Below are positions 6,266-26,927 of a stretch of 32,140 nucleotides of DNA, piece by piece. Source of the stretch: Planctomycetota bacterium (lineage in GTDB: Bacteria > Planctomycetota > Planctomycetia > Gemmatales > Gemmataceae); contig JACQFG010000310.1 in the NCBI GenBank assembly GCA_016200155.1, positions 1 through 32,140 of the forward strand, in the 5' to 3' direction. The position numbers and the translations under genes were made by a program. The notes under the pieces were generated by a model. That model searched no databases. It saw only the letters and a list, made by a program, of their open reading frames with translations, and had not been told where the DNA came from. The first letter of the stretch is position 1. Each line of letters begins with the position of its first letter.

Positions 6266-6301
6266 CAGGGTCGCAACCCGGGCCGCTCGCTGGAAACGTG
6301 G

Positions 6302-7728: not shown

Positions 7729-7819
7729 GTGTTACCTTGGAGAAGGGCAACCTCCCGACCGGGGTCCTCGACAATCCGTTTTGTGAACGGCTCGCCATTG
7801 TAATCGAAAGGACATCATC

Positions 7820-9665: not shown

Positions 9666-9745
9666 AACCTGGGCAGTCGAAGCAAACTGAGACATTACCT
9701 GGCCCTGCCTTTTTTTCCGGAACGACGCTCCAGGAGTACGCAACC

Positions 9746-12700
9746 ATGGAACAACTTGGTTCTCGCAAATCGCTCGTCGCAATGGCGCTTTTTTCCATTG
9801 GCTTCAGCGCGCTCGCGCCGTTGGTTGTGATTCCAGCAGGGGAGCGGAAGGGGCGTCCGGCGGATGACGTCAAGACCGAGGCGATCGTGCGCCAACGCTA
9901 CGCCATGGACCCGCCCCATCACTCCAAGGATCCGGCCGTCAAGATCGACTACGACATTGTCTACGTACGCGCGCCGCGCAATGCGTTCGTTTATCCCGAC
10001 GTCGGCACACCCACGCTCGTGGAACCCGGCGCCGATTTGATGCTGCTGCATCCCGATGGCAGTGAGGAGCTACTGGTCGAAGGCGGCAAACGCGGTTCGG
10101 TCGCCGATCCGTTCGTATCCTTTGACGGCAAGTCGGTTTACTATGCCTTCTTCTACGCCAATCACGGCGCCGACATCTACAAGATCCACGTACCGACGCG
10201 GAAAATCGTCCGTCTGACACACGACGGCGGTCAACCAGCGCCCGGAACACGCGGAGCGAACTACGCGGTGCACCAGGATTCGCAGGTCCATCTAATGACC
10301 ATGATGGGGCATCATCCGTCGGTGCGCGACGTCATCTACAACACCGGCCCCTGTCCCGTGCCAGGCAGCAAGGTGGTCTTCACAAGCAATCGCCATGGCT
10401 TCGTGCCGCGCATCGGCAGCTTCAGCTCGCATGCATTTCAGCTGACCGCAATGGACGATGACGGCCGCAACGTGGAAACGATCGGGCACTTGAATCTCGG
10501 TTGCGCGCTTCATCCGGTCATTCTGAAGGATGGCCGAATCATGTTCAGCTCGCTGGAGAACCAGGGAGTGCGCAGCACGCTGCACTGGTCGCTGTGGACC
10601 ATCCGTCCGGACGGCTCGCACTGGGACCCGCTGGTGAGCGATTTCGGCTGGGGCCTGCCGTCGTCGTTCCACTTCCAGACGCAGCGCAGCGATGGCCGCG
10701 TCGTGGCGGAGTTCTATTACAACGTCAACCAGGCGGGCTTTGGGACCTACGCTCAGTTTCCTGTCGCCGCGCCGAAGGGGACGCCGTTCTTCGGTCCGGG
10801 CGATCCCGATTCGCCGCGCAATCAGCCGTTGCGCATGCTTGCCGGAGGTGTCAAGGCGTTCCAGCTTCCGTTCAGTCCACACGGACTGGACATGCTGACG
10901 CCGTTCGCAAACGATGACGACAACCCGAGCACGCGTTCGGATCCGAAAGACCCGAAGTCGCCGAAGGTCGGCCGGGTGACGCATCCGTGCGGTGCACCGG
11001 ACAACCACGTGCTGACGGTGTGGGCGCCCGATCTCGATGTGAGCCGTGACGGCATCACCGGCGGCGTGCGGCGCGTGGCGAGCGACACCGGCATCTACCT
11101 GATCAAGGCCGGCGCGCCGGTCTATGAACCCGGCCAGATGCTGCTGATCAAGAACGATCCGAAATATCACGAGCAATGGCCGCGCCCGCTCGTGCCCTAC
11201 AAGCGTATTCACGGCATCGACGAGCCACAACGCTTGCCGCTGGTCGTCAACGACGGCAAACAGTCGCCGTACTTGCCCGAGGGAACGCCGTACGGTCTGA
11301 TCGGAACCTCCAGCCTGTACAAGCGCGAAAGCGCCACGGCGGGTAGTGTGCCGGACGGTAGCGTGACTGCCGTCACGCCAGCCAAGCGCGGACGGTACGG
11401 AAACAATCTGCGCGGCTGGGTTGACCAGGGCGCTGACGCCGGCATCTATGAGAACAGTGAAATCCACGCCATCCGGATCGTTTTGCAAGAGCCGAACGTT
11501 CGCGAAGATCAATGGCGTTTCTTCAGCCACGCTCATGAACGGATGCGCATCCTTGGCGAAATCCCCGTGCGCCATTTTGATCGTAGACCTCACGCTCCGC
11601 GTGAGGAAAAGCATCACGCGGAGCGTGATGCCTACGGTGGCCAACCGTTCGATCCCGACGGCAATCCGGACACCAGCTTCCTGGCAAAGATCCCCGCCGA
11701 TCATTCGTTCACGTTCCAAACGCTGGATAAGCATGGCCTCGTGCTCAATATGTCGCAGACGTGGCACCAGGTCCGTCCGGGCGAGGTTCGCAACGATTGC
11801 GGCGGTTGCCACGCCCACAGCCAGAAGCCGACCCTCTTTGAGCACACGGCGGCCGCCAAGTCGGACTACAAGATTTTCGATCTGACCAAGTCGACCCCGC
11901 TCATCACAGCCAAGGGGCACGACCAGTCGGGCAAGCAATGGGATGTCAAGGACGAGACGGGGCTGCGTTTTGAAAAGAATGTCAAGGACGTCGAATACTG
12001 GCGCGACGTGCGTCCCATCCTGCAGCGAAGTTGTGCCGCCTGCCACACCAAGACCGCGAAAGAACCGGCGGGCGGCCTGGTGCTCGACGACGACGAGAAG
12101 ATAGCCAGTGACGGTTATCGACAGCCGCGCGGCGTGCCGCGCACCTACCAAGAGCTGGCGCTCAACCCGCGTTACGTGAAAGAGCTGCAAGCGCGTTCGA
12201 GCATGTTGACCTGGCGCCTGTTCGGTCGAAGAATGGACGGCCATCCCGACGCGGCGCCGTTTACCACGAGCGGCAAGACGCCCGCCAAGCCGTTGAAGCT
12301 GACGCCCATGCCGCCACCCGAAGCAGTCGCGGGCACTTACGTCGGACCGGACAGCAAGAAAATCAAGGTTGCAGCGCTCTCCGACGAGGACCGCCGCACG
12401 CTGATCCGCTGGATCGACCTGGGCTGCTCGATCGACCTGCGTTTCGATCCGCAGCGCCCTGATCCGCGCACCAGTCCCTTCGCGGATCGAACGTTGCCGA
12501 CTTTGACCGTCGCCCTTCCGCGCGCCGGCGCCAACGGGGAACCGTTGACGCGCATCGTCGTCGGCATGGCGGACGCGGCCAGCGGGTTGGACATGTCCAG
12601 CTTCAGCGTGATTGCCGACTTCGACATCGACGGCCAGTCGGCGGGGCGTGAACTGGCATCCTACTTTCGGCCAACCTCGCCCGGCGTCTGGGAAATGCGC

Positions 12701-12805
12701 TTGAAATCGCCGCTGGCTGAGTTGGCGGGCGGCAAGCTAACGATTCAGGTCGCCGATCACGATCGCAATGTCGCGCGCATCGAAAGGACTTTTTCTATCA
12801 AATAA
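9746..12805 (+). CDS. Large secreted TolB/PD40-like beta-propeller protein with two C-terminal c-type haem motifs; possibly HzsA-related family
   Basis: ATG at 9746 follows AGGAG with a 9-nt spacer and gives the signal peptide MEQLGSRKSLVAMALFSIGFSALAPLVV. PD40-like segments include DPFVSFDGKSVYYAF and FSSLENQG. CGGCH lies at 11798..11812 and CAACH at 12032..12046. The track start at 9650 lies inside the palindrome. Confidence 0.8.
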   Translation: MEQLGSRKSLVAMALFSIGFSALAPLVVIPAGERKGRPADDVKTEAIVRQRYAMDPPHHSKDPAVKIDYDIVYVRAPRNAFVYPDVGTPTLVEPGADLMLLHPDGSEELLVEGGKRGSVADPFVSFDGKSVYYAFFYANHGADIYKIHVPTRKIVRLTHDGGQPAPGTRGANYAVHQDSQVHLMTMMGHHPSVRDVIYNTGPCPVPGSKVVFTSNRHGFVPRIGSFSSHAFQLTAMDDDGRNVETIGHLNLGCALHPVILKDGRIMFSSLENQGVRSTLHWSLWTIRPDGSHWDPLVSDFGWGLPSSFHFQTQRSDGRVVAEFYYNVNQAGFGTYAQFPVAAPKGTPFFGPGDPDSPRNQPLRMLAGGVKAFQLPFSPHGLDMLTPFANDDDNPSTRSDPKDPKSPKVGRVTHPCGAPDNHVLTVWAPDLDVSRDGITGGVRRVASDTGIYLIKAGAPVYEPGQMLLIKNDPKYHEQWPRPLVPYKRIHGIDEPQRLPLVVNDGKQSPYLPEGTPYGLIGTSSLYKRESATAGSVPDGSVTAVTPAKRGRYGNNLRGWVDQGADAGIYENSEIHAIRIVLQEPNVREDQWRFFSHAHERMRILGEIPVRHFDRRPHAPREEKHHAERDAYGGQPFDPDGNPDTSFLAKIPADHSFTFQTLDKHGLVLNMSQTWHQVRPGEVRNDCGGCHAHSQKPTLFEHTAAAKSDYKIFDLTKSTPLITAKGHDQSGKQWDVKDETGLRFEKNVKDVEYWRDVRPILQRSCAACHTKTAKEPAGGLVLDDDEKIASDGYRQPRGVPRTYQELALNPRYVKELQARSSMLTWRLFGRRMDGHPDAAPFTTSGKTPAKPLKLTPMPPPEAVAGTYVGPDSKKIKVAALSDEDRRTLIRWIDLGCSIDLRFDPQRPDPRTSPFADRTLPTLTVALPRAGANGEPLTRIVVGMADAASGLDMSSFSVIADFDIDGQSAGRELASYFRPTSPGVWEMRLKSPLAELAGGKLTIQVADHDRNVARIERTFSIK

Positions 12806-12913
12806 GGAACATTCGAACAATAACTTCCCGAAGTGGGGCCGCATCGCAACCTTCGCAGGGACAAGCGGTGTAATCGCCGAATCGGCCAACGCGCACGGTG
12901 GTTCAGGAGGTGT

Positions 12914-14254
12914 TTATTTTTCAGTCGTCGCGGCAACGACCCGGAAACCGACGCAGTCGCTGCGGTAAACCGGCACATGATAATCGCGAAAGGCACAGCG
13001 ACAGAATTTAGGCTGAGTGCTCCAGGCGCCGCCGCGTTGGACTCGTTCCTTGCCGGTGGTCGGACCTTGCGGATCCTGCTTGGGACTCTTGGTGTAGTAG
13101 CTTTCGTCATACCAATCCGAGCACCATTCCCAGACGTTGCCGTGCATGTCATGAAGGCCGAAGTCGTTGGCCTGGAAGCTGCCCACCGGGGACGTGAAGG
13201 GAAAGCCGTCGTTCCACTTCGTGGCCCAGAACGCATCCTTCCATTTCAATTGGAGCGTGGCGTCGGCAAGGTTGGCGACCGCTTGCAAATCGGCGTCCCT
13301 GGCGCCGGCGCTGAAGCGTGTCTTCGTGCCCGCCCGGCACGCGTATTCCCACTCGGCTTCGGTGGGCAAACGGTAAATCCTGCCTTCCTTTTTCGATAGC
13401 CAGGCACAGAATGCCATTGCATCGTTCCAGGAAACCACGGTCACGGGATGATCGTCGGTCTGGGTGAAATGCAGTTTCTTCCAGGTGAATTCCGGTTTTT
13501 GCACGAACTCCTTGCCATCGAAGGCCTTGCCCCCCTTGCCGTCCTTTTCCGCTTCCGTCTGGTAGTTCGTAGCCTTGATGAATGCCTTGAATTGACCGAC
13601 CGTCACCTCGTGCTTGGCAAGATAGAAATGTTGCGTGATCTCGACTTCATGCGGCAGCTCTTCGTCAAGGCGGTCCTCCTCACCTTTCGGCGAGCCCATC
13701 ACGAACTTGCCTGCGGGAATCAACAGCAGACTCATGTCAAGGGAGTTGACCTGTTTCCGCGGCACGAAGACAACCTCCCCCTCGAACCGGTCCACCAGGG
13801 CGAACCCCGTCGGCGGACCTTTGTAGGGAAAGCGCGTGACGCGGTGCTCTTGATTCCACACAACCCGCAGGACCTTCTCTGTAATCCGGGGAACGTCGAA
13901 CCGGATCGAGCCGGCTTCGCCCTTGGAGGGATGCCCCTGCACGGCCAAAATCATCTGCATGCTCCAGTCGATCTTTTCTAGCTTCAGAGCCCTGGCCAGC
14001 GCGGCCTCGGCTTCCTTCTGGGCCGCGGGATCCTTCGCGGAGTCCGGCTTGGCCGAATGCGCGACCAGCTCCTGAGCACTGCGGATCACCACGCCGCTGT
14101 CATCTTTCTTGAGCCGAATCAAATTCGGTTCCGTGTCGCTGGCGCTGGCAAGAATCTTCAGCTCCTTGGCGTCCTTCGGCGGCTGCCCGTGCAGTGACAT
14201 GGCTGCCAGGGCAACGACAACGCACACACCAGGAAAACTGAGGCCACGAGACAT
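12914..14254 (-). CDS. Formylglycine-generating-enzyme (SUMF1/FGE-sulfatase, PF03781-type) domain protein with an uncharacterised N-terminal domain
   Basis: Start at 14254 follows GGAGGTGGAG. A signal peptide is present. The C-terminal half carries LIPAGKFVMGSP, HPVTVVSWNDAMAFCAWLS, YRLPTEAEWEYACRAG, HGNVWEWCSDWY, RVQRGGAW and VGFRVV. Confidence 0.85.
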   Translation of the reverse strand: MSRGLSFPGVCVVVALAAMSLHGQPPKDAKELKILASASDTEPNLIRLKKDDSGVVIRSAQELVAHSAKPDSAKDPAAQKEAEAALARALKLEKIDWSMQMILAVQGHPSKGEAGSIRFDVPRITEKVLRVVWNQEHRVTRFPYKGPPTGFALVDRFEGEVVFVPRKQVNSLDMSLLLIPAGKFVMGSPKGEEDRLDEELPHEVEITQHFYLAKHEVTVGQFKAFIKATNYQTEAEKDGKGGKAFDGKEFVQKPEFTWKKLHFTQTDDHPVTVVSWNDAMAFCAWLSKKEGRIYRLPTEAEWEYACRAGTKTRFSAGARDADLQAVANLADATLQLKWKDAFWATKWNDGFPFTSPVGSFQANDFGLHDMHGNVWEWCSDWYDESYYTKSPKQDPQGPTTGKERVQRGGAWSTQPKFCRCAFRDYHVPVYRSDCVGFRVVAATTEK

Positions 14255-14362: not shown

Positions 14363-14863
14363 CTATTTACTCGACGCGAACTTCACCTCGCCATCGCAGC
14401 GTTCCACCAGGATCACGGCGATCGGGGTCCCAGGACCCGCATGGGGCGGGCGCGGTCGGACCTTCCAGGCAACCGTTAGCCGCCTGTCTTCGAGCTTGAT
14501 GGAATCGAAACGAACGGTATCCGCCTTGGTCCCTGGTTCGCCGCGCACGGCCAAAATCATGTGCTTGCTCCAGTCGATCGCGTCCACGCGCAGGAGCGCG
14601 GCCAGCTCCGCCTCGATTTTCTTCTGGACGCCGGCGTCCTTCGCGGAATCTGCCTTGCTCGACAGAGCGACGAGCTGTTCGGCGCTGCGGATCACGTAGC
14701 CGCCGGGAGCCTCCAGCATGACCGGCCCGATGCTGACCTCACGCGTACTGTCGTGAGCGCTGGCGATGATTTTCAACTCCCTGGCTTCGTCCGCATGCAC
14801 GGACGCAATGACGGCGCAGGCAAGCACACAGGAAGCGACGGCAAGTCGCGTACGGTAAATCAT
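14363..14863 (-). CDS. Secreted 166-aa protein, stand-alone paralogue of the N-terminal domain of the adjacent FGE-domain protein
   Basis: Start at 14863 follows GGAGGAG and gives the signal peptide MIYRTRLAVASCVLACAVIASVHA. It shares colinear blocks with residues about 30-170 of the 12914..14254 product: ELKI(I/L)ASA, VIRSA(E/Q)(Q/E)LVA, K(A/P)DSAKD, IDWS..MILAV.G.P, (T/S)(V/I)RFD and GEV.F. Confidence 0.75.
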   Translation of the reverse strand: MIYRTRLAVASCVLACAVIASVHADEARELKIIASAHDSTREVSIGPVMLEAPGGYVIRSAEQLVALSSKADSAKDAGVQKKIEAELAALLRVDAIDWSKHMILAVRGEPGTKADTVRFDSIKLEDRRLTVAWKVRPRPPHAGPGTPIAVILVERCDGEVKFASSK

Positions 14864-15002
14864 GAGTTCTCCTCCAAAGTCAAGAGCGCCACCCCGCCAA
14901 GGGCCGACGACGCTACGGTAATCGGACGCCGGCTTCGAAGCACCTTGGCAGGTATACGACTGGGGCGGGCCCAATCTAACACTCGATTGGTTCCGATCGC
15001 TA

Positions 15003-16418
15003 TTATTTCTTCGGTTCGTAGATGACCCAAACCGCGGGGCGGTCGCTGAGCGCAGCGGCCTCTCGGGAGTGGGCGCGCGGGAACCAATCGCCGGCGTCGC
15101 CGTGCAGCATGAAGCCATGATTGGCGTGTTTGCCGTCGATCCAGAAGCGGACCGCGTGGGTGAAATCCCAGGTATTCACCTTGCCCTGGCTCGGTCCGTG
15201 GGCCAGGTAGATCGGCAGGAAATCAGGATCGTCGCCGTAGTACATGCCGCCGATGGCTTTCCAGAACTTGTCTTTGGCATATTCGTAGGCATTCACTTCG
15301 TATTCTTCCCAGGGCCGATTGCACGGCTCCACCACCCACATGTTGGGCTGGTCGGGATTGTGCTCCTTGACGAACTTGTCATGATTTCGAATAACGACAA
15401 GCTTGGCCGCGAGGATCGTGGAGCCCTTGGGGATGCTGGCGAGGTCCACGCGCATCAGCGGGCTGCGGTGGCGCATGAAGATCTCATGGCTGGCCTGCTT
15501 GCCGATGTTGTCGGTCCGTTCCAGTGTCATGCCGTCCGGCCCGTGGCTCGACCAGTAAGCGTCCTTCCAGCCCGCGTACACCTTGTCGGGATGGGCCGGA
15601 TCGAAGCCCTTCTGGCCGTCGCGGAGAACGGCCAGTACCGCCGTGGGATGCTTCTTTTTCAGCTCGGCGTATTGCGTCCGCAGCTCGCCTTCGACCTGAT
15701 CCAGCGTCTTCATCTCGGGTTTGGTCCAGCGCGCCTTGAGTTGCTTGCCAAGGTCGCGCACGCCGGTGACAACCATGTCGGCGCCGTGTACCGTGAACTT
15801 GGTGGTTTCCGTCGGCGTCGCCTCCTTGACGGTGGACAGGCGGATGTTGTCCACATAGATCGTTTCCCCCTCATGGGGCGCGTACATGAAGATCTCGAAG
15901 CGGACGACCTTGCCCTGCTTGGTGTTGATCGAGTAGTTGTTCGAGTCGTGGATGGTGCCGGTGACCGTGTTCTTGCCGGGCTTCAGGAATGCGGTCTTGG
16001 TCCAGCGGCTGACAGTGGGATCCCAGCCGCCGCCGCGCAGGCTCCCCTCTTGCAACACGGTGAAGCCGATGAGGCAGTGCCGGCTGGCCGTCACGTCCGC
16101 CCGAAAAGTCCAGTAGGGCATCCAATCCGCGGGCACGTCGGTGGTGGTGATGGTCGGCCAGCGTCCCCCGGCGAAGGTGAGCTTCAGGCTTTGCTTGCCG
16201 CGCGTGGCGTTCTCGGCGGATAGCTCGATCTTGACCGGAGGCTCCTTTTGCTTGACGTCGGGCAGCTTCAGGTTCGACCAGACTTTGAGATCGGCGGCCT
16301 TCTCGAAATCGAACAGCAGCGTTTCCTTGGCCGCTGGCTGGGCCAGGGCAGCGCCTCCTATCAACAGGCTCACGGCCAGCAGGACGCCGATCAGGGCTTT
16401 CAGGTAGGTCATTGACAT
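15003..16418 (-). CDS. Secreted hypothetical protein (N-terminal CBM-like beta-sandwich; C-terminal region ending HANHGFMLHGD, DNRLRE-like)
   Basis: 471 aa. AAGGAG lies 9 nt upstream of the ATG at 16418. Signal peptide MSMTYLKALIGVLLAVSLLIGGAALA. No catalytic motif was recognised. Confidence 0.7.
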   Translation of the reverse strand: MSMTYLKALIGVLLAVSLLIGGAALAQPAAKETLLFDFEKAADLKVWSNLKLPDVKQKEPPVKIELSAENATRGKQSLKLTFAGGRWPTITTTDVPADWMPYWTFRADVTASRHCLIGFTVLQEGSLRGGGWDPTVSRWTKTAFLKPGKNTVTGTIHDSNNYSINTKQGKVVRFEIFMYAPHEGETIYVDNIRLSTVKEATPTETTKFTVHGADMVVTGVRDLGKQLKARWTKPEMKTLDQVEGELRTQYAELKKKHPTAVLAVLRDGQKGFDPAHPDKVYAGWKDAYWSSHGPDGMTLERTDNIGKQASHEIFMRHRSPLMRVDLASIPKGSTILAAKLVVIRNHDKFVKEHNPDQPNMWVVEPCNRPWEEYEVNAYEYAKDKFWKAIGGMYYGDDPDFLPIYLAHGPSQGKVNTWDFTHAVRFWIDGKHANHGFMLHGDAGDWFPRAHSREAAALSDRPAVWVIYEPKK

Positions 16419-16445
16419 GGCTTCACGCTCCTTGAAGATTTGCCC

Positions 16446-16802
16446 TCAGGGTTGGGACGAAGGGTTGGGACGGATAATGCGGATGAACCGGTTCGCCAAG
16501 TTCGGCGCGGCCGAAATGGCGTCGTGAATGCGCTGCGCCAGGCCCGCGTGGTTCTGGGGGTCCTGGGTACAGGAGATGATGCCTTCGTGCGGCTGACCTT
16601 GTCGATGAAGCCGGCTGAAATCGGGATGATTATGGGTAAGGACAGCACGTTGGCCAGCGATGGCATCCGCGAGAACTTCCGCATCAGCAATGCCCTGGCC
16701 AGCCCGACCCGCCTCCTGGACCGTCCGCACGTCGTGCCCGAGGCGGCGCAACTCCTCGACAACCGGCAGAGGGAAATCCTCATCCGCATAGAGCCTGGCC
16801 AT
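16446..16802 (-). CDS. DUF5615-family PIN-like protein (putative toxin of a DUF433/DUF5615 pair)
   Basis: MARLYADEDFPLPVVEELRRLGHDVRTVQEAG...DAEVLADAIAGQRAVLTHNHPDFSRL matches the DUF5615 N-terminal pattern. It starts 7 nt after the DUF433 stop. Confidence 0.7.
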   Translation of the reverse strand: MARLYADEDFPLPVVEELRRLGHDVRTVQEAGRAGQGIADAEVLADAIAGQRAVLTHNHPDFSRLHRQGQPHEGIISCTQDPQNHAGLAQRIHDAISAAPNLANRFIRIIRPNPSSQP

Positions 16803-16808
16803 GAATGG

Positions 16809-17066
16809 TTAATCCGCCTCGTTGTCGCGAATGTCCTCATCGATCTCGGCGGGATGCTCTCGGTAGTAATCCCAGACCGTGCGGAGGTCTTCGGGCGTCA
16901 GTCCCACGATGTTGCCCAGGATCTGCTCGTCCGCCGCACCCAGCCGGCGGGAATTCACCAGGCCCCAAACCGTGATTCGCGTGTTGCGAATGCAGGCCCT
17001 TCCACCGCATACGCCTGGCGTCTTCTGAACCCAGCTGCTGGTCGTCTTCAAATTGGTGGCCATCAT
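16809..17066 (-). CDS. DUF433 domain protein (putative antitoxin partner)
   Basis: GVCGGRACIRNTRITVWGLV...LTPEDLRTVWDYYREHPAEIDEDI is the DUF433 signature. ATG at 17066 is preceded by AAGGAGGTG with a 3-nt spacer. An alternative ATG at 17087 overlaps an upstream stop as TAATG. Confidence 0.75.
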   Translation of the reverse strand: MMATNLKTTSSWVQKTPGVCGGRACIRNTRITVWGLVNSRRLGAADEQILGNIVGLTPEDLRTVWDYYREHPAEIDEDIRDNEAD

Positions 17067-17086
17067 GCGCACCTCCTTCGCCGGCA

Positions 17087-17191
17087 TTATACCAAAGAGA
17101 TGGCCGCCTCGGCACTGAACGCAAACGGTTCCGCTCCCGTGGCCCGGTAGCCGTTGCCCGCAATCGGTTCGACGAGCACGGAAATCTGCAT
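17087..17191 (-). CDS. 34-codon ORF (MQISVLVEPIAGNGYRATGAEPFAFSAEAAISLV), possibly a truncated remnant of a small upstream partner gene
   Basis: It is not in the ORF track because it is under 60 aa. GGAGG lies 7 nt upstream of the ATG at 17191. Its TAA overlaps an in-operon ATG (TAATG). No family was assigned. Confidence 0.25.
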   Translation of the reverse strand: MQISVLVEPIAGNGYRATGAEPFAFSAEAAISLV

Positions 17192-17351
17192 GGTTGAACC
17201 TCCACCCATTTCGGCCCGCATTTATTCTACCGCATGAGCGGAGACAACGGGGCCTGGCAGTTTTCCACGCGCCGACACACCGCTGCAACCGGAAAAAGTG
17301 TTAGGAGGGTCCTGACGCCTTTTTCCCCTTCCGCAGCAAAAACGAGCTTTC

Positions 17352-17759
17352 TTAGCCCTGAAACTGCTGGCAACTCGAATGCTTTTCTCGCCCAAACAAC
17401 CGGCCAAAGAACCCGATTCCGGCCCCGCACATGATGCACACGTTTTTCGACCGCCGTTCATTGATTATATATTGCTTTCTTTCTTCCTCTGCACGCCGCC
17501 GCGGTTCTTCTTCCTGGCGTTTCTTTGCCTCCTCTTCCCGATATTTTGCGGTTTCAACTTGCATTCGGGATAGCTCATCTTGCCACTTTTTCTCCTCGGC
17601 TTTAATTACATCGACGGCCTTCTTGATGGCAGAGCATCCGTTGCACTCTTTCTGCGCGATGACGTTTTCAACGTTCGTTATGAGTTTATCGAATTCTGAT
17701 TTGAAATTTGGAAATCGCGGAGCGTGACCACGCAGAGGATCTCCAAAACGCCAATTCAT
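17352..17759 (-). CDS. Hypothetical 135-aa protein: Glu/Lys/Arg-rich coiled coil plus C-terminal CxxC-GFFGRL half zinc ribbon
   Basis: The ORF lies in an AT-richer segment (about 40-50% GC). Its codon usage is coherent with the neighbouring 419-aa gene. No family was recognised. Confidence 0.6.
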   Translation of the reverse strand: MNWRFGDPLRGHAPRFPNFKSEFDKLITNVENVIAQKECNGCSAIKKAVDVIKAEEKKWQDELSRMQVETAKYREEEAKKRQEEEPRRRAEEERKQYIINERRSKNVCIMCGAGIGFFGRLFGREKHSSCQQFQG

Positions 17760-17801
17760 GGCGAAGAGACGTGCGATTGAACCGGGAACATCGTAATAAA
17801 G

Positions 17802-17891
17802 TTAAAGTAGTTGTCCCAATGTTTCACTATCAATTGACTGGACCGATATTATTTGAAGGAGGATTTCCGAAGCTTTACGATAATCACGCAT
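17802..17891 (-). CDS. 29-codon micro-ORF (MRDYRKASEILLQIISVQSIDSETLGQLL)
   Basis: AAGGAGG (17898..17904) overlaps the TAA of the upstream 419-aa gene and lies 6 nt before the ATG at 17891. It fills the gap between two co-directional genes. It is too short for the ORF track. Confidence 0.35.
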   Translation of the reverse strand: MRDYRKASEILLQIISVQSIDSETLGQLL

Positions 17892-17902
17892 GGTCAACCT
17901 CC

Positions 17903-19162
17903 TTACAACATCCCGTAGAGCATTTCAATCTGACGTTTAGCTTGCAGTATGGCTGGTTTACCGCCACTCAGTTGCAGAGCTTTGTCAAGACAGTCCAATC
18001 CGGATTTCACCTTCGGTTTATTCATCCCGATCTGCCCGAGCTGTGAGAGGCACATCCCCTTGAAATACCATGCCAAGTGGTTCCCACCATCCAGTTCAAT
18101 TGCCTTGTCAAAGTACGTCAGAGACTTTTCCGCGTTTTGCTGAGGGGCGATGCCCGGTATTTGCTTGCGCCATACCGATTCATCCATCTGATACAGTGCT
18201 AATCCGCAGGTAAGCCAGCCGGACGCTTCGCCAGGCAGGGCCTTGACCGTGATAAGGGAGCATTTGAAACTCTCTTCATATCGCCCGGCATCGGCAAGGT
18301 CTCCAGCGGCCTTGGCAAGGTTGTCCCAACCGTATTTCTTGACTAGGGCCGTTTCTTCATCAGACAGATCGACTTGCTGTTTCTGTTTCGGGGTAACACC
18401 TGGTTGCGGGTCCGCAGTCTCGTATGACGGAAATGAGGCCCGCGCGGGAGGCGCCGCCCTCGGGTTAGTTTGGGGAGCTACCGGTTGGGCTGTTGTCTGG
18501 TTCTGGGTCGCAAGTTTTTCGGGAAGATCGGTGGACGACGTTGCCGGCGTTGCAATGCTCATGAGCATTTGGACGGCCTGGCGAATGGGATTCGGAAGAG
18601 CAAGGAGTTCTGCTTCTGACATCCCCGGTCCGAGATGTTCTCTTAACCCCATGAACTGAATCATGATCTCCGTGGCAGCCTTTCCTTGACGCAGAAGTTC
18701 AACGCCACCGACGGGTTCGGGAGGCCTATTGAGCAGAAAGAATCCAGACCATGCACTACGGAGCATCATTCCGGCATACCACTTGAACAGATCATAGGTT
18801 TCCGGTGTATCATCGACCAACTTCACCGTCAACCGCTCGGGAGTGGGAAACCACCATGTGAGGATGAACGAGATGTTGGTCCGAATGGCATCGATTAGCT
18901 CGATGGCAAGTTGGTTGCCCGCTTTCCGATAGTACTCGGTGGCAAACGTACAGACCGCTGAGAGGTCGGCAATCTTCTGGTCCCGGTAAGAGGAATCCAT
19001 GAGTCGATCGTTGTCAAGACCACCACGTTCGACTAAGACCTGCCAGCATGCCGGACAGTACCAATATTTGGATGCCGTTCCCCGAACCTTCACCCAGGAC
19101 CATAGCCGGGCAAAAAAGCCAGCTTTTGCGTGGCATTGAGTACAGGTCGCTGAGAGGAACAT
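17903..19162 (-). CDS. Hypothetical 419-aa protein: N-terminal zinc ribbon (CTQC...CPAC), unknown central domain, Pro/Gln/Thr-rich linker, C-terminal TPR repeats
   Basis: GGAG lies 8 nt upstream of the ATG. The TPR-like segments are AGRYEESFKCSLITVKALP, AEKSLTYFDKAIELDGGNHLAWYFKGMCLSQLGQ and GLDCLDKALQL. The gene lies in the AT-richer segment. Confidence 0.7.
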   Translation of the reverse strand: MFLSATCTQCHAKAGFFARLWSWVKVRGTASKYWYCPACWQVLVERGGLDNDRLMDSSYRDQKIADLSAVCTFATEYYRKAGNQLAIELIDAIRTNISFILTWWFPTPERLTVKLVDDTPETYDLFKWYAGMMLRSAWSGFFLLNRPPEPVGGVELLRQGKAATEIMIQFMGLREHLGPGMSEAELLALPNPIRQAVQMLMSIATPATSSTDLPEKLATQNQTTAQPVAPQTNPRAAPPARASFPSYETADPQPGVTPKQKQQVDLSDEETALVKKYGWDNLAKAAGDLADAGRYEESFKCSLITVKALPGEASGWLTCGLALYQMDESVWRKQIPGIAPQQNAEKSLTYFDKAIELDGGNHLAWYFKGMCLSQLGQIGMNKPKVKSGLDCLDKALQLSGGKPAILQAKRQIEMLYGML

Positions 19163-19238
19163 GAAATGTACTCCAAAACCGCCTCACACCTTCAGTTTTT
19201 GGCTCGATACAGTTGATTGGTTTTCATGAACTTTCCAA

Positions 19239-19267
19239 ATACTACGCGGTCGCCATCGGAGTGTCAA
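19239..19267 (-). promoter_or_regulatory. Sigma-70-like promoter candidate TTGACA-17-TAGTAT for the 419-aa gene
   Basis: The reverse strand has TTGACA (19267..19262), a 17-nt spacer and TAGTAT (19244..19239), about 75 nt upstream of the ATG at 19162. The motif match was made by eye only. Confidence 0.4.
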
Positions 19268-19303
19268 CAAGAAAGGAAACACACCCCGTGAACGAGGTAC
19301 GGT

Positions 19304-19855
19304 CTATCGGGGTGCTAGGCCTCGATGCCACCAACTGAAGAGATGAAGCCCCTCATGGCATTCTATACAAACCGCGCTCAGATCATCCAGCAGTTCATGC
19401 CCTACACGGTCGTATGTCTCGTGATGGGCCTGAACTGCGGGGCGCACCTCGCAATAGACGCAGACCCCGCCCGCCGCTTCAATTACTCTTCGACGCAGAG
19501 CCTGCCATTCAGGACTTGTGAGATACTGCCCATACCGCCGCCACCACTCAATCGACCGCCCCTGATTGAGTTGATTGGTCACGGCCGCGTTGATGGGACC
19601 GAAGACGGCGCGAAACCGTTGTTCCGCTTCATCGTTCCAAGGAGGAACACTTTCTGGCGGAACCCCATTAAGAACGCTGTAAGGCAACTCGCTACCCCAA
19701 CGTCGCCCGCAGTCCGGGCATTGCGCGCGAAGGCGAATCCGGCCACGCTTGTCTACTTTGTGGCGAACCTCCCGACGAGGACATTTGCACGGCAGCGCCG
19801 TGGCAACAATCTCCTTGTGGCGATGGAAGTCATATGACGGTCTTGCGATGTCCAT
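19304..19855 (-). CDS. HNH-type endonuclease-like protein (phage-associated YL(T/S)xxW...C..C...HH.tY.r.G.E...L..C..CH..H family) with N-terminal zinc ribbon
   Basis: YLTSPEWQALRRRVIEAAGGVCVYCEVRPAVQAHHETYDRVGHELLDDLSAVCIECHEGLH is the pattern seen in small phage HNH proteins. CKC...CPDC occurs at the N-terminus. Confidence 0.65.
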   Translation of the reverse strand: MDIARPSYDFHRHKEIVATALPCKCPRREVRHKVDKRGRIRLRAQCPDCGRRWGSELPYSVLNGVPPESVPPWNDEAEQRFRAVFGPINAAVTNQLNQGRSIEWWRRYGQYLTSPEWQALRRRVIEAAGGVCVYCEVRPAVQAHHETYDRVGHELLDDLSAVCIECHEGLHLFSWWHRGLAPR

Positions 19856-19969
19856 TGTGAAACACCCACAGACGGCCTAACGTGGATCAGGCCGCGCGTG
19901 TGCGCAGCCAGATCCGGTTGTCTGTTGATCTCTGAAGCCGCGCCTGTTGGCGTATCGGGTCTTACAAAG

Positions 19970-21271
19970 CTAGCGTTGCTTCTCCGCGGCAAAATAGGCC
20001 CGGTACTGCTGTTCGCGATCCATATGCACCAGCGGCGGCACCCGATCAACAGCATTGTCGCCGCCCACCAACTCGAACGAGATCCCCAACGGCGTGCGGC
20101 CGGGGCGCTTGAAGCGGCCGCCTTCGTAGTCGCCGCCCCAGTAGTCGCCGATCGCTATCATGTCGAAGCGCGTGAACGCTTTCTTCTGCGGATCGTAAGT
20201 CAGCACACCGCTGAGGCGAGAGTCATAGCCGCGCTGCGATTTTGCGGGGTCGGCGTCGGTTGTCAACAGGGCAGTCCCCTGCAAGCGCATCCGCAACGTC
20301 GGGGAAACCTGTTCGACGGTCAGCGTCAGCGTGCCGGTGCGTATCTGCTCGAGACTCCAGGAACCCGGCAAGCCGAAGGTGCCGTTGACCAGATGGTAGC
20401 GGAAGAGGCGTTTCTGGATGGCATCGGGGACGGGGAACGTGGCTCCCTTTTTTGGATCGGCCGGGATTAGCGATTTCCATTCCGCCTCGGTGAGCCAAAC
20501 GTTGAAGTGCGCCGGCTCCGTGTAGATGGGATTCCAGTCGGGATAAAGGACCTTGTCCTTGAGGTCCGCCTTGGTGATCGTGGCGAGTTCGCCGCGCTCG
20601 TTCTTTTTCAGGTTGCGGGCAAAGGACCTCAGGATCAATCCTCCTACCGGCGGCGTGCAGCGGTCGGCCTCGGGCGGCTTGACTTCCTTGCCTGCAGGCA
20701 AAGCCTTGCGTTCTTCATCCGTCAGCAACTTCCAGTTCTTGAGGCCCGTGTTCAGCGCCTCGCGGGCGCCGCCGCCGCCGTTGCCGCCGGCGAGTTTCTT
20801 GCCGCTCGGCGTCGTGAGCACAAAGCAATTTCCGCCGCTGGGATGGCGATTCGCCTTGATGAAATCACCGTCCTGCCCATCGGTCTTGGCCAGCCAGTAG
20901 AGCATGTGACCGTTGATCGCCACCGCCACGCAATTCTCTTTCACCAGCGGTGCAACTTGATTGACGCCGAACCGGCCGTCTTGCACCCCCTGGTTTCAGC
21001 ACGTCCCGAGCGGTTCGCCGGCCATGTACCAGAGCAACAGGGGCTTGCCTTCCTCGGCTGCCTTTTTCCGTGCCGCATAGATGTTGGAACTCGGCATCCA
21101 GGGCACCTGCATCCACTGCGAATCGTCAGGCCCCGGCGCGATGAGACGCTGGAGCTTCTCGAGCGAATCCGCCGCCGGCTTCTTCGTCGGTTGCGCCGCC
21201 GTTTGCTGGACGCCGACCATGAGGCCCACGACCAGCGCGAGCGACCTTTTGATCCGTTTGATTGCATTCAT
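19970..21271 (-). CDS. Candidate selenoprotein: secreted thioredoxin-like (Thioredoxin_7-like N-terminus) protein with in-frame UGA (Sec?) at codon 92 plus a large C-terminal domain of unknown function
   Basis: Track ORFs 20996..21280 and 19970..20986 share one frame and are separated only by TGA (20996..20998) and 3 codons. ATG at 21271 has AAGGAG 8 nt upstream. A signal peptide is present. The motif is ...EEGKPLLLWYMAGEPLGTC-U-NQG... The downstream ORF has no ATG or SD of its own. Confidence 0.6.
20944..20998 (-). other. UGA codon plus candidate bacterial SECIS stem-loop
   Basis: The RNA after UGA is AACCAGGGGGUGCAAGACGGCCGGUUCGGCGUCAAUCAAGUUGCACCGCUGG. Stems: CCAG/CUGG, GGUGCAA/UUGCACC and GACG(G)CC/GGCGUC. 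The apical loop GGUUC starts about 25 nt from the U of UGA. Confidence 0.5.
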
Positions 21272-21306
21272 TGTCATCACTCCTTGTTATTTGATCTCTG
21301 GCGTGG

Positions 21307-23667: not shown

Positions 23668-24846
23668 CTAAACACTCGGCTTTCCGGTGAGTCGCACGTA
23701 ATATCCCTCACCCAACGTCGACTTCCCTTTGGGCCGTCTCCTGCTCATCATGGGCTTCGGTGTGCTCTTGTCTTTGTCGAGCACTTCAATCTCGCCACTC
23801 GCCTCCAGGTGAAGCAGAGCCTGTTTGTACGCAGATTGGCTTAGCAAATCAGTCGGGCGCACGACCCAGTCATTGAAAAATAGGTCTACGCATCGAGGAC
23901 CCGTCACAAGCGCGTTGAGAATTTCTCTTTTCACATCAAAGTGAGGATCGAAGAGTGCGACATAATCCGTCCGCCCGGCTTGGACGAACTGCAAAGCGCC
24001 CTCACCTTCTTCCGAGTGACCGCGTTTCCACATGATGTCCTTCATGATCTTGAAGCCAAGCTTGTGATTGGTCGCGTGAATCAGATAGTGACTGGTCTTC
24101 TGCTTTTCTTCGGATTCGACCCGGAATGGGATTGAAAATTCAACGCGCATATCTTTGCGCAACGCGAGCCGATAACACTCCAAGATCAGTAGTTCTCGTT
24201 TATCAGCCTCGTCCGTTGTCTGCAAGGCACTGAAAAGTTCTTCCGCCCGCTGCCTTGAGCCGAGCAGTTCCACTAACACGTCGCTGAGCTTGTCCAACCC
24301 GGCGATTCTGCGCACGCCGTCGATGTTGAAGAAAATAAACGCTTCAGACGATTTGCACGCCATCACGGCTTTGATGGTTTCGAAGGACGTGCCCGAGACT
24401 CCACACGGATCAACGAACAAGAACGTAGGCGGTAGATTGCCGTTGGATTGTTTCAACAGCTTTTTCACTCCGTCGGCGAAAGTGCAGCAGTCGGTGTTTG
24501 GCTGGCGGATATGTGGGTTGGCCTTCCCGAAATCCACGACGGCTTTCTGCAGGGGCAGATACAGAATTGGATCGACCTCGATGAAAACTGCCGAGACCTT
24601 CTTGGAGAAGGTGTCGTTGGAAGCGATAAGCTTGAGCGCCCGAAGAGGAGAGCCGTCGAAAACCTCTCCCGTGTCGGCTTTCGTATATGTTCCGCGCCCA
24701 GCAAAGCCATCAACGTACTGAAGGTCCTTATTCGCCGTCCCGACAATCCGAAAATATGGCGTAAGGTAGGTAGCGAGAATCTCGTGTTTGACCTGCGTCT
24801 GCGCGCGGTAGTCGTCAAAGTGTTCTCGGTCGTTGTCTCTCCCCAT
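23668..24846 (-). CDS. tcmP: Three-Cys-motif partner protein TcmP-like (TIGR04474-type), methyltransferase-fold-like motifs
   Basis: The N-terminus (...TQVKHEILATYLTPYFRIVG...YVDGFAGRGTY) is typical of TcmP. FAGRG (motif I-like) lies about 100 aa before FVDPCG (motif IV-like). The RBS GAGGAA overlaps the stop of the upstream DUF5131 gene. About 47% GC. Confidence 0.6.
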   Translation of the reverse strand: MGRDNDREHFDDYRAQTQVKHEILATYLTPYFRIVGTANKDLQYVDGFAGRGTYTKADTGEVFDGSPLRALKLIASNDTFSKKVSAVFIEVDPILYLPLQKAVVDFGKANPHIRQPNTDCCTFADGVKKLLKQSNGNLPPTFLFVDPCGVSGTSFETIKAVMACKSSEAFIFFNIDGVRRIAGLDKLSDVLVELLGSRQRAEELFSALQTTDEADKRELLILECYRLALRKDMRVEFSIPFRVESEEKQKTSHYLIHATNHKLGFKIMKDIMWKRGHSEEGEGALQFVQAGRTDYVALFDPHFDVKREILNALVTGPRCVDLFFNDWVVRPTDLLSQSAYKQALLHLEASGEIEVLDKDKSTPKPMMSRRRPKGKSTLGEGYYVRLTGKPSV

Positions 24847-24853
24847 GGTTTCC

Positions 24854-25651
24854 TCATTTCACCGCCAACTGCGCGAAGTCGTCAATCAAGTTCAAGCGAA
24901 TTCGCTGCGAAGGCGCGGATGCACTCACTCGCTCAGGAAGGCCGTTATACGTTTGTCCCGCGAGCGTTCGCCCCGCCTGTTTCTTCCGCACGCCACCCCA
25001 TTGTTTGAAGAAGAACGGAATGCTGGCGGCGTGGCACTGGTCGCGAACGCTGAGTACCCATTCAGGTTGCATCGTGCGGGCGCCGGGACCGCTCTCCCCG
25101 CCGACAATGACCCAGTTGATTCCTTTAAGGTTCAATGTGCCGAGATCTTCCAGCAAAGGTTCGACTGAAAGAAAGCGAACAGTCGCCGGTGCACGCCGTA
25201 GATTTTCAATCCGTGGTAGACCGTGGCGTTGATTCTCGACACTCACCCCCCACCATATGTGCGGTAAGTTGGCGGCAAATCGAAGACTCCCTCGAAGTAG
25301 ATCCCGCAGTCGCACCGACCGCTTCGTCAAAACCTGAAACGTGTGCCAGGTTGCCAACTCCATGACGCGGGCAACGTCGCGAATGTAGTCGTCTGGCACG
25401 TCCTCATGGAAAAGGTCGCTCATGCTATTGACGAAAATCATGCGCGAGCTGGCCCAACGTAGAGGCTCGCGAAGTTTTTCGGGCACCAGGCGCAGGTCGA
25501 AGCCTTGCTCATAGGGGTGGCCGGGCACGCCGCGAAATCGTTCTGCAAAAGTTTCGGCATAGCAATGAGCGCATCCGGGGCTAATTTTGGTGCAACCGCG
25601 GACCGGATTCCAAGTCGCATCGGTCCATTCGATGGAGGAATGCTCGCTCAT
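24854..25651 (-). CDS. DUF5131 / phage Gp37-Gp68 family protein (PF07505-type) with three-Cys motif
   Basis: MSEHSSIEWTDATWNPVRGCTKISPGCAHCYAETFAERF is the canonical family N-terminus (IEWTD.TWNP..GC...S.GC..CYA). GGGAG lies 5 nt upstream of the ATG at 25651. Confidence 0.8.
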   Translation of the reverse strand: MSEHSSIEWTDATWNPVRGCTKISPGCAHCYAETFAERFRGVPGHPYEQGFDLRLVPEKLREPLRWASSRMIFVNSMSDLFHEDVPDDYIRDVARVMELATWHTFQVLTKRSVRLRDLLRGSLRFAANLPHIWWGVSVENQRHGLPRIENLRRAPATVRFLSVEPLLEDLGTLNLKGINWVIVGGESGPGARTMQPEWVLSVRDQCHAASIPFFFKQWGGVRKKQAGRTLAGQTYNGLPERVSASAPSQRIRLNLIDDFAQLAVK

Positions 25652-25667
25652 CTACGCTCCCGAAAAT

Positions 25668-25687
25668 TAATGAACATGCGTTCATTA
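25668..25687. promoter_or_regulatory. Perfect 20-bp palindrome TAATGAAC-ATGC-GTTCATTA (GAAC-N4-GTTC core); candidate repressor operator, SOS-box-like
   Basis: Read directly from the sequence. It lies 17 nt upstream of the DUF5131 start codon and overlaps the TATAAT hexamer on the reverse strand. Confidence 0.5.
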
Positions 25688-25712
25688 TAGTAAGAAGCCC
25701 GGTATACTCCAA
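25684..25712 (-). promoter_or_regulatory. Sigma-70-like promoter candidate TTGGAG-17-TATAAT for the DUF5131-TcmP operon
   Basis: The reverse strand has TTGGAG (25712..25707), a 17-nt spacer and a perfect TATAAT (25689..25684). Confidence 0.4.
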
Positions 25713-25755
25713 CACAAATATCGTTGATTTCTATGAGCGCGTAAAGTGCAAAGGA

Positions 25756-26739: not shown

Positions 26740-26856
26740 GTAACATCAGTGTTCGGGTCGCCATGCTACCCCAATGCGAAGCCAGCCATTGCAGAAGAAT
26801 TGCAGAAGTCCAAACACCTGTTTTCGTAACGTCTATTTGGATATGAAGTTACGAAG

Positions 26857-26927
26857 CTGGGGTACTAGGATTCGAACCTAGACAAACTGATCCAGAGTCA
26901 GTTGTGCTACCGTTACACTATACCCCA
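26857..26927 (-). tRNA. tRNA-Gln (anticodon CUG)
   Basis: Manual cloverleaf. Acceptor UGGGGUA/UACCCCA. D stem GUGU/GCAC with a GG loop. Anticodon stem ACUGA/UCAGU with loop CU-CUG-GA. T stem CUAGG/CCUAG with loop UUCGAAU. Discriminator G. CCA is not encoded. Confidence 0.9.

Follow-up and report, generated by a model that had tools for sequence, protein, structure and literature searches.

The window, i.e., the whole stretch of 32,140 nucleotides that was analyzed, had a mean GC content of 60.0%, and its lowest-GC part was a patch of approximately 2.7 kb at 17.29–19.97 kb. The minima of 400-, 1000-, and 2500-nt GC windows across the 32 kb all fell at approximately 17.0–17.8 kb (0.438 vs. 0.599 ± 0.045 and 0.526 vs. 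0.597 ± 0.024), and 60-nt lines in 17580–18360 had a GC content of 38–58% (mean 49%), compared to 70% for the line at 16021. Four ORFs of the ORF list were located in this patch, all on the minus strand: an HNH gene (19304–19855; 183 aa), a gene for a 419-aa protein, p419 (17903–19162), a micro-ORF (17802–17891; 29 aa from its ATG, or 31 aa from a TTG at 17897), and a gene for a 135-aa protein, p135 (17352–17759). Their GC3 values were 0.571, 0.586, 0.267, and 0.522, respectively, vs. 0.770 ± 0.049 for 20 other genes, giving z-scores of −3.8 to −10 over all four ORFs (−3.8 to −5 when the micro-ORF is set aside). The AT-richer islet of four co-directional ORFs described in the initial annotation was thus recovered in full, with a clearly atypical composition by both windowed GC and GC3. 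One explanation would be that these are native, fast-evolving, lineage-specific genes, brought together by chance and low in GC due to weak expression or relaxed selection. The overall GC content of the HNH gene (0.58, near the 0.60 of the host) is consistent with this, but a GC3 approximately 4–5 SD under that of 20 neighboring genes, with a sharp change at the gene borders, argues against it.

The signals around the ORFs divided the islet in two. Strong Shine-Dalgarno sites had been proposed for the ORFs and were recognizable for the micro-ORF (AGGAGG, 6 nt 5′ of the ATG and overlapping the p419 stop codon) and for p419 (GGAG, 8 nt 5′ of the ATG), but not upstream of the HNH and p135 ORFs. 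The promoter TTGACA-17-TAGTAT, also noted earlier, was present at 19267..19239 on the minus strand, 77 nt 5′ of the p419 start codon. This sigma-70-like site matched 10 of 12 consensus positions, bearing in mind that planctomycete promoters may differ from the consensus, and ranked first of five promoter-like sites in 16300–20100, where shuffles gave 1.6 ± 1.3. A terminator-like hairpin with a T-rich tail (19280..19301, minus strand) began 2 nt past the HNH stop codon; the terminator scan gave nine pairs, five of them G-C, and the tail TTTCCTTTCT, and folding of the spacer gave an identical stem. Because this hairpin and then the promoter-like site intervene, the HNH gene is set apart from the other three genes. 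Beyond p135, the fold of the spacer 17067–17351 contained a long G+C-rich hairpin (17280..17339, minus strand) 12 nt past the stop codon, which probably marks the end of a p419–p135 transcription unit; the scan also marked terminator-like sites at 17358..17344 (minus strand) and 17298..17318 (plus strand). The promoter and terminators named here are consensus matches only. With regard to a non-coding RNA, no Rfam family was detected in 16–21 kb.

The islet adjoins two co-directional genes on the minus strand, separated by a 6-nt gap: a DUF433 (COG2442) predicted antitoxin (16809..17066; Pfam E 2.8e-17; GC3 0.77) and a DUF5615 gene, its presumed PIN-family toxin partner (16446..16802; Pfam E 7.9e-23; GC3 0.70). 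We take DUF5615 to be a PIN-like domain, and the two genes form a predicted toxin–antitoxin pair. DUF433 (COG2442)–PIN pairs have been predicted to be type II toxin–antitoxin systems, in which the PIN partner is the sole reported conserved neighbor (Makarova et al., 2009; PMC2701414). The genes at 16446–17066 agree with these in holding both domains in co-directional order, and here they constitute a self-contained module of host-like composition. The pair recognized in the initial annotation is therefore real and adjoins the islet, but is separate from it, a neighbor and not a component. Elsewhere, the window contained genes of an ordinary planctomycete type (DUF1501, FGE-sulfatase, SASA, GDSL, beta-lactamase, and Pkinase), and a second mobile-looking patch with TcmP/DUF5131, AAA_25, and tRNA-Gln was located 4–7 kb away.

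The HNH protein showed an N-terminal CxC...CxxC zinc ribbon (C23, C25, C46, and C49) and, at the C-terminus, an HNH motif (C132-x2-C135, H144-H145, D158, and C163-x2-C166-H167), in which D158 occupies the usual Asn position, based on alignment to the 'EDL' of Cas5-HNH. It was matched by PHROG HNH families at E 9e-7 to 3e-5 (333, 144, and 589 at E 1e-6 to 3e-6) and by phrog_8060 (E 1.9e-8), and annotated HNH endonucleases of Streptomyces phages were 37–41% identical to it over residues 101–181 (tblastn, E 2e-10). The top solved-structure match to the HNH core was Cas5-HNH of HNH-Cascade (PDB 8yb6, 'CRISPR system Cascade subunit CasD'), whose HNH aligned with residues 104–173 and shared the identical spacing CxxC ... 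HH ... (E/D)DL ... CxxCH. However, this alignment was restricted to the HNH domain of approximately 70 residues (E 0.007), and the islet has neither a Cas5 domain nor a CRISPR-Cas context. Since the Pfam HNH models all missed E 0.1, the protein was regarded as a divergent member of the superfamily; at superfamily level, its earlier assignment as a phage-type HNH was borne out by the motif and by the PHROG, phage, and structure matches.

Two homologues of the HNH protein were found among 5.8 billion protein clusters (P0002, 87%, and P0003, 72%), and no further copies in JGI metagenome contigs or IMG/VR. At the DNA level, homology on the window covered 19857..19313 for one of the two other loci (L002) and 19834..19356 for the second (L001). 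Identity to L002 was 92.9% over a stretch beginning 2 nt 5′ of the ATG and ending 9 nt short of the stop codon, and no similarity between the flanks of the two loci was detected. At L002 the HNH gene lies between a DUF4118-PAS sensor kinase and an unrelated ORF, and the flanks at L001 likewise differ from those in the window. A gene at 93% DNA identity in unrelated contexts is hard to reconcile with a native, lineage-specific origin. The dN/dS of 0.13 in deep pairs indicated that the HNH gene is maintained as a working gene. At a further locus (L008), an apparent second pairing of HNH and TPR (tblastn E 0.004) was discarded as a chance match, the ORF there being a zinc-ribbon/membrane protein. 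A reading of the L001 DNA 3′ of the HNH gene as a frameshifted tyrosine integrase with a tRNA fragment was likewise rejected, being unsupported by ARAGORN, Pfam, and plasmid searches.

The closest known counterparts are the free-standing HNH homing endonuclease genes of phages, e.g., T4 mobE (PMC2790892, PMC2988022, PMC10448857). The islet HNH belongs to the same superfamily (37–41% identity) and is likewise a single small ORF amid unrelated genes, with only the gene itself common to the genomes that carry it and under purifying selection. It differs in being chromosomal with no surrounding phage, in its extra N-terminal zinc ribbon, and in that its cleavage activity is a prediction. It also differs in its distribution, since its three copies occupy three non-homologous contexts and not a cognate site with an empty allele; no HNH-free allele of the locus was present in a metagenomic Gemmataceae genome (L003) or among 29 contigs on which the flanking 471-aa gene has a relative. 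Classical homing would not yield copies at non-homologous sites. Judged from its sequence and distribution, the HNH gene appears to be a solo, ORF-sized cassette encoding a predicted nuclease.

The second large gene encodes a protein of composite structure. Residues 7–39 of p419 form a zinc-ribbon-like CxxC...CxxC knuckle (C7-x2-C10 ... C36-x2-C39) enclosing the sequence GFFARLW; the zinc ribbon named in the initial annotation agrees with this pattern but received no support at the family level. Residues ~50–205 are an orphan, probably all-helical domain, followed by a disordered linker rich in Pro, Gln, and Thr (~206–267) and a TPR module with three repeats (~268–419). The TPR assignment, made earlier, was confirmed by the agreement of Foldseek, HMMER, and profile matches with a tandem arrangement of the repeats. 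The profile of the module matched consensus TPRs with E 5e-50, and Foldseek with the p419 model returned TPR folds only, e.g., CHIP and SycD. In the single-sequence AF2 model, pLDDT values of 70–90 were reached for residues 340–419 only and values were <50 over most of residues 1–266, for which reason the fold matches are uninformative on the N-terminal domain. Thus, the C-terminal 150 residues resemble CHIP, the SycD/PcrH chaperones, and the designed CTPR3 by both profile and predicted fold. It departs from these three-repeat peptide-binding TPRs in that its sub-family is rare, comprising about a dozen clusters at 50% identity, with a conserved (V/L)(S/T)DEE lead-in and small residues or Cys at helix-packing positions, and in that an orphan N-terminal domain precedes the TPR module of p419 in the same chain.

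The word-index search with p419 returned the self match alone. An exhaustive HMMER search of 1.84 billion representatives gave 996 matches, and the 150 listed all fell within residues ~222–419; the closest relatives among these were P0005 (51%) and P0006 (47%). Among the matches listed, the part of p419 with relatives was only the C-terminal TPR module (residues ~232–419), and no relatives of residues 1–230 were found by the word-index search, among the listed HMMER matches, or in phage, plasmid, and IMG/VR data. The N-terminal part had no match in Pfam, NCBIfam, PHROG, or PADLOC, nor to phages or plasmids. Relatives of the TPR module bear other N-termini and adjoin kinase, sigma-factor, SelA/SelB, and transporter genes, i.e., ordinary chromosomal contexts. 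Their contigs carry planctomycete-type gene sets (DUF1501, Pkinase), which would be compatible with native genes.

The protein p135 comprises a short helix (19–36), a first CxxC pair (C39-x2-C42), a charged helix of 70 residues (43–112), a second pair (C108-x2-C111), and the sequence GFFGRLF in a disordered tail. The mean pLDDT of its AF2 model was 73.6, with values of approximately 90 over residues 43–112; the protein, described earlier as a charged coiled coil, was thus modeled with one 70-residue helix. No homologues of p135 were found among 5.8 billion clusters, phage records, or IMG/VR, and Foldseek against viral models returned nothing under E 1.8, making p135 a putative gene without homologues. 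The micro-ORF, which would encode the peptide MRDYRKASEILLQIISVQSIDSETLGQLL, is a possible coding gene; its GC3 of 0.27 differs from both neighboring genes, and an AT-rich spacer would fit equally well.

A similarity between p135 and p419 was detected by BLASTP, in which residues 108–122 of p135 and 7–21 of p419 were identical at 8 of 15 positions (E 0.004 for the single comparison), corresponding to a common motif CxxC-x3/4-GFFxRL[W/F]. Basic, Gly/Phe-rich stretches ending in RLFG or RIFG also occur in unrelated TPR proteins, e.g., P0010 and P0084. GFFGRLF and GFFARLW are reminiscent of amphipathic helices that target proteins to membranes, e.g., the C-terminus of MinD. The hydrophobic moment of GFFGRLF (0.65) was the second highest in p135, while GFFARLW was unremarkable in p419, and a membrane-targeting role for these sequences is considered a candidate lead. 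Given this common motif and the adjacency of their genes, p419 and p135 may be partners.

How the islet arrived was examined at its borders, which offered no route: integrase, tRNA, direct repeat, and attC were all absent. No direct repeats flank the islet, and the only tRNA of the window is 7 kb distant. The co-directional, mostly relative-less ORFs adjoining a toxin–antitoxin pair prompted a search for an integron cassette array, which was rejected, as no RYYYAAC ... GTTRRRY pair at 35–130 nt was present on either strand of the whole window; the HNH homology also stops short of any 3′ recombination site. The gene order that the window has in common with the closest contigs stops at the islet on both sides. 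However, related contigs are generally poorly collinear, so that this break constitutes weak evidence. Searches for an empty site with the 338-aa flank gene in genomes and the 471-aa flank gene in metagenomes recovered relatives that were collinear over one or two genes at most. Because no empty-site allele was found, the case for an insertion of the islet is the compositional one. The lack of a mobility signature at the borders would suit native genes, but neither L003 nor any of the 29 contigs recovered via the 471-aa gene carried an islet gene, and together with the GC3 shift and the relocated HNH gene this makes a native origin improbable.

The initial annotation had itself set its proposal against an ordinary prophage with a terminase next to the HNH gene. 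That reading was rejected: no terminase accompanied the HNH gene, and Pfam, NCBIfam, and PHROG detected no integrase, terminase, capsid, or tail genes in the window. A more permissive version, in which all four genes arrived jointly and are the decayed remnant of a single planctomycete phage or integrative element, with the HNH as its nuclease and the orphans as accessory genes, would account for the phage-type HNH, the GC3 lowered in all four genes (0.52–0.59 save the micro-ORF), and the second mobile-looking patch 4–7 kb away. Orphan proteins with small zinc-binding motifs are, moreover, typical phage cargo. It is countered by the absence of any such phage gene or att repeat in the 32 kb, by the fact that neither p419 nor p135 was matched in 50,697 phage records and IMG/VR, by the chromosomal setting of the TPR-module relatives, and by the solitary state of the HNH gene in its two other occurrences. 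We regard such a remnant as unlikely.

The same neighborhood had been interpreted as a candidate defense or mobile module. A one-off anti-phage or abortive-infection system of this kind would use the TPR module of p419 as the sensor of a phage protein, p135 and the micro-peptide as modulators, and the HNH as the effector cutting DNA. An acquired islet that sets a nuclease beside a repeat-domain protein and a toxin–antitoxin pair invites this interpretation, and rarity and lateral movement are common among defense genes. Of the checks proposed in the initial annotation, comparison to the PADLOC-DB v2.0.0 profiles gave no significant match: p419 was unmatched, p135 matched only PDC-S66 (E 0.035), and the HNH matched only PtuB (E 0.0016 to 0.02). 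The PtuB match is the sole likeness to Septu (PtuA ATPase + PtuB HNH) and is weak and motif-level (15.9 bits at E 0.0016, over approximately 50 residues of a 261-position model). Septu was discarded, as no ATPase, and hence no PtuA-like partner, was found in 16.4–21.3 kb. A STAND/Avs-type sensor was also discarded, since p419 has three TPRs only and no NACHT, NB-ARC, or AAA NTPase, and neither Pfam nor NCBIfam detected a P-loop domain in it.

The second check, co-occurrence, was negative as well. No joint locus of HNH, TPR, and coiled-coil genes was found among both HNH homologues and five p419 relatives: neither HNH homologue had p419-like or p135-like neighbors, and no HNH or p135 lay beside the TPR-module relatives in the five neighborhoods examined (four by tblastn, and the contexts of P0014 from the gene table alone). 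The power of this comparison is low because neither p135 nor the N-terminal domain of p419 has a homologue whose neighborhood could be compared. A search of the available literature returned no relevant work joining HNH, TPR, zinc ribbon, and anti-phage defense. With the terminator and promoter that separate the HNH gene from the rest, a defense system of this kind is very unlikely, and the four genes as one defense module are not supported. What stood of the foreign-module proposal was the atypical composition, the HNH cassette in three contexts, and the synteny stop; its unity and its defensive function did not.

Overall, with somewhat more confidence than doubt, we interpret approximately 17,290–19,969 as accessory DNA that a Gemmataceae-like chromosome acquired laterally, made up of two independent units, a selfish HNH gene and an orphan scaffold operon. 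The first would be a free-standing zinc-ribbon and HNH gene of a type common in phages, behaving as a selfish mobile cassette with its own terminator. The second would be transcribed from the promoter-like site at 19267–19239 through p419, possibly the 29-aa peptide, and p135 to the hairpin at 17339–17280, and its predicted products are devoid of a catalytic domain. In p419, the zinc knuckle, novel helical domain, and flexible linker would precede a TPR module of the kind that binds peptide tails, whereas p135 would present a long charged helix between CxxC pairs. The two proteins may be partners in a non-enzymatic protein–protein assembly, in which p419 would act as the scaffold. We give only a very slim chance to a bolder variant, in which the p419/micro-peptide/p135 operon, with or without the HNH, is an unseen one-off conflict system whose TPR scaffold, bearing a wholly novel N-terminal domain, senses an invader and triggers an effector, or in which the p419 N-terminus represents a new fold and function with no relatives in ~15 billion proteins.

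The approximately 200 N-terminal residues of p419 and the whole of p135 have no detectable relatives in 1.8–5.8 billion protein clusters, and the orphan domain of p419 is joined to a TPR module, rare but conserved, which in other proteins follows different N-termini. In planctomycete-like genomes from soil and freshwater, the HNH gene seems to move between non-homologous chromosomal sites with nothing but its own ORF, a behavior distinct from classical homing. If the favored reading is true, the islet would be ordinary accessory genome, a selfish nuclease gene beside orphan genes. Its main value would then be one of caution, in that the adjacency of a nuclease, a repeat protein, and a toxin–antitoxin pair does not make a defense system.

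Analysis of the base composition showed that the region at approximately 17.29–19.97 kb is an AT-richer islet, as the initial annotation had claimed, in a window with an overall GC content of 60.0% and a planctomycete-chromosome gene set (DUF1501, FGE-sulfatase, SASA and GDSL esterases, beta-lactamase, Ser/Thr kinase, and DUF4838). The GC minima at the 400-, 1000-, and 2500-nt scales across 32 kb all fell at approximately 17.0–17.8 kb, and the line-by-line GC values first reported (38–58% across 17580–18360 and 70% at 16021) were accurate. The ORF list contained the four minus-strand ORFs at their original positions: a 135-aa coiled-coil protein (p135; 17352–17759), a 29-aa micro-ORF (17802–17891), a 419-aa TPR protein (p419; 17903–19162), and a 183-aa HNH nuclease (19304–19855). 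Their GC3 values were 0.52, 0.27, 0.59, and 0.57, respectively, vs. 0.77 ± 0.05 in 20 other genes. The adjacent DUF433/DUF5615 pair (16446–17066) had host-like values of 0.77 and 0.70. DUF433 and its PIN partner are predicted to form a type II toxin-antitoxin module; because the PIN partner was the sole conserved neighbour in such modules in a 2009 survey (PMC2701414) and the composition is host-like, the pair was considered an independent neighbour of the islet. A 44-aa ORF between the islet and DUF433 (17087–17221, minus strand; MQISVLVEPIAGNGYRATGAEPFAFSAEAAISLV from an inner Met) had no Pfam or NCBIfam match and is possibly what truncation has left of a small gene; its end falls within the GGTATAAT/AGGAGG signal that closely precedes the DUF433 start codon.

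The sole genome matching a flanking gene was a Gemmataceae genome from a Lake Baikal metagenome (86% protein identity), and the gene order common to both breaks off precisely where the 338-aa gene ends, at its stop codon (window 19967). On the other side, relatives of the 471-aa gene were found on 29 metagenome contigs, all lacking the islet genes as well as the toxin-antitoxin pair; the closest (L011/L012 and L014) and the more distant L020 had in common a different upstream neighbour of ~346 aa. This pattern is consistent with a variable region but does not prove it, since collinearity among the genomes is low in general and the Gemmataceae genome and the 29 contigs yielded no true empty site. 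Fast-evolving native genes, a reading that has the lack of a mobility signature at the borders on its side and the deviating GC3 against it, are improbable. The 338-aa gene (19970–20986) forms a single pair with a 94-aa gene (20996–21280); in the related Gemmataceae genome (L003), such a pair (~95 aa, ending ...GEPLGTC, and ~340 aa) belongs to a tandem array of at least five paralogous pairs at 5779–13643, and neither window protein belonged to a Pfam or NCBIfam family. The longest ORF of a 251-aa gene (14363–15118, minus strand) shares 116 nt with the 3′ end of the 471-aa DNRLRE-domain gene (15003–16418, minus strand), and the 251-aa gene probably starts further downstream.

The islet had been proposed to be one undescribed defence or mobile module, and the transcription signals split its four genes in two. 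A terminator-like hairpin with a T-rich tail (19301–19280, minus strand) begins 2 nt past the HNH stop codon and is directly followed by the previously noted TTGACA-17-TAGTAT (19267–19239, minus strand), which was the region's best promoter-like match and lies 77 nt upstream of the p419 start codon; past the p135 stop codon comes a long G+C-rich hairpin (17339–17280, minus strand). The simplest reading of these signals, which are consensus matches rather than measurements, would be two transcription units, with HNH alone and p419, the micro-ORF, and p135 together. Strong Shine-Dalgarno sites were found for the micro-ORF (AGGAGG) and p419 (GGAG) but not, as had been supposed, for HNH and p135. 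The micro-ORF is a candidate ORF, since despite this strong site its GC3 looks more like that of spacer DNA.

The HNH protein carries a complete CxxC/HH/D/CxxCH motif in residues 101–181, which matched phage HNH families (PHROGs; E down to 1e-8) and annotated free-standing HNH endonucleases of Streptomyces phages (37–41% identity, E 2e-10), and aligned with the HNH domain of Cas5-HNH (PDB 8yb6). Pfam HNH models all scored worse than E 0.1, indicating a divergent member; the N-terminal 100 residues include a CxC...CxxC ribbon. Only two relatives were found among 5.8 billion protein clusters, on a 1.5-kb soil-metagenome contig (L002; 87%) and a 2.6-kb NCBI contig (L001; 72%). The window's own HNH was absent from these matches, so its ORF may be called differently on the source contig. 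The DNA identity to L002 (92.9% over 19857..19313) begins 2 nt upstream of the ATG, ends 9 nt short of the stop codon, and is lost on both sides, and the homology to L001 is likewise restricted to the ORF. The neighbours in L002, a divergent DUF4118-PAS sensor kinase and an unrelated ORF, differ from those in L001. A dN/dS of 0.13 in two deep comparisons indicated that selection maintains the protein; the close pair gave 0.71, from just 33 substitutions. Given the ORF-limited homology, the differing neighbours, and the maintained protein, the gene behaves as a self-contained cassette, one that has arrived at three unrelated sites. In this it is similar to free-standing homing endonuclease genes of phages (PMC2790892, PMC2988022, PMC10448857); presence/absence at one homologous site, the homing signature, was looked for and not found. 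A long antisense ORF (167–301 aa) overlies all three copies (window 19325–19837, plus strand; L002 796–1299; L001 598–1503), and the substitution pattern (dS 1.18 and dN 0.15 in the HNH frame) points to the HNH frame as the coding one.

A word-index search with p419 matched only itself, while HMMER, run exhaustively on 1.84 billion representatives, returned 996 matches, of which the 150 listed all lay within approximately residues 222–419. This module is a canonical three-repeat TPR (Pfam), with consensus TPRs at E 5e-50 in a PDB profile search and a predicted CHIP- and SycD-like fold. Among the matches listed, approximately 12 single-stretch ones have one specific 150-residue module in common, the closest being P0005 (51%) and P0006 (47%), then P0007, P0008, P0014, P0024, P0042, and P0069; the others are generic multi-repeat TPR proteins. 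The relatives' N-terminal regions are unrelated, often with zinc ribbons, and their neighbours are kinase, sigma-factor, fatty-acid, SelA/SelB, or transporter genes. A zinc-binding-looking, unannotated domain (CD[VI]CNG.V[TS]...GY[LV]...TPW[LM]VC..C; loci L004 and L010) is N-terminal in P0005 and P0014 and C-terminal in P0007, an arrangement that points to a small protein family whose modules have been shuffled. In those of the relatives' loci that were available as DNA, tblastn with HNH, the micro-ORF, p135, and the N-terminal part of p419 found no partner, a weak HNH match in L008 being spurious. Co-localisation of homologues, on which the one-module proposal had been staked beforehand, was thus never seen, as far as homologues exist.

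Residues 1–230 of p419 had no match in Pfam, NCBIfam, PHROGs, PADLOC, PDB, phage records, plasmids, or IMG/VR, and were modelled (single-sequence AF2) as helical with low confidence. The gene was considered real because a 419-codon open ORF in 53% GC DNA is very unlikely by chance (~4e-5, by our own estimate, for the N-terminal 235 codons). No relatives of p135 were found among the 5.8 billion clusters, phage records, or IMG/VR, and its AF2 model, one 70-residue charged helix (pLDDT ~90) with a disordered tail, had no fold match (Foldseek, viral models). C39-x2-C42 and C108-x2-C111 bracket this helix. Besides adjacency, the only link between p135 and p419 is the alignment of the p135 tail motif CIMCGAGIGFFGRLF with CTQCHAKAGFFARLW at the p419 N-terminus, and this link appears weak, since related basic Gly/Phe-rich motifs also occur in unrelated TPR proteins.

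PADLOC gave nothing for p419 and E 0.035 for p135, and known defence systems were rejected; so were Septu (motif-level PtuB matches to HNH, without PtuA) and a STAND-type sensor (without NTPase). A one-off novel defence system, to which the lack of relatives lends itself and the split of the genes does not, is highly improbable. An integron cassette array was discarded without attC sites in the window, as was a prophage without integrase, terminase, structural gene, or flanking repeat there, the sole tRNA lying 7 kb off; no Rfam families were found in 16–21 kb. Descent of all genes from a single decayed phage fragment, set between the phage-type HNH and this lack of phage genes, is rather unlikely. 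A second mobile-looking patch (23668–26927) comprises a TcmP 'three-Cys-motif partner' gene (23668–24846; TIGR04474, E 4e-51; lowered GC3, 0.65) paired with a DUF5131 gene (24854–25651; Pfam E 6e-99; lowered GC3, 0.62), followed by an AAA_25 protein (25756–26739) and tRNA-Gln(CTG) (26856–26927).

Of the original reading as a defence or mobile module, what stands is that the DNA looks acquired and HNH looks mobile; the single module is not supported. Most likely, and with moderate confidence, the islet is accessory DNA in which a selfish HNH cassette would lie next to an orphan operon that encodes no enzyme and centres on a TPR scaffold. Stand-alone HNH genes, TPR proteins, and genomic islets are all known kinds; what is unusual here is only that the p419 N-terminal domain and p135 are complete orphans and that the HNH gene relocates as a bare ORF.
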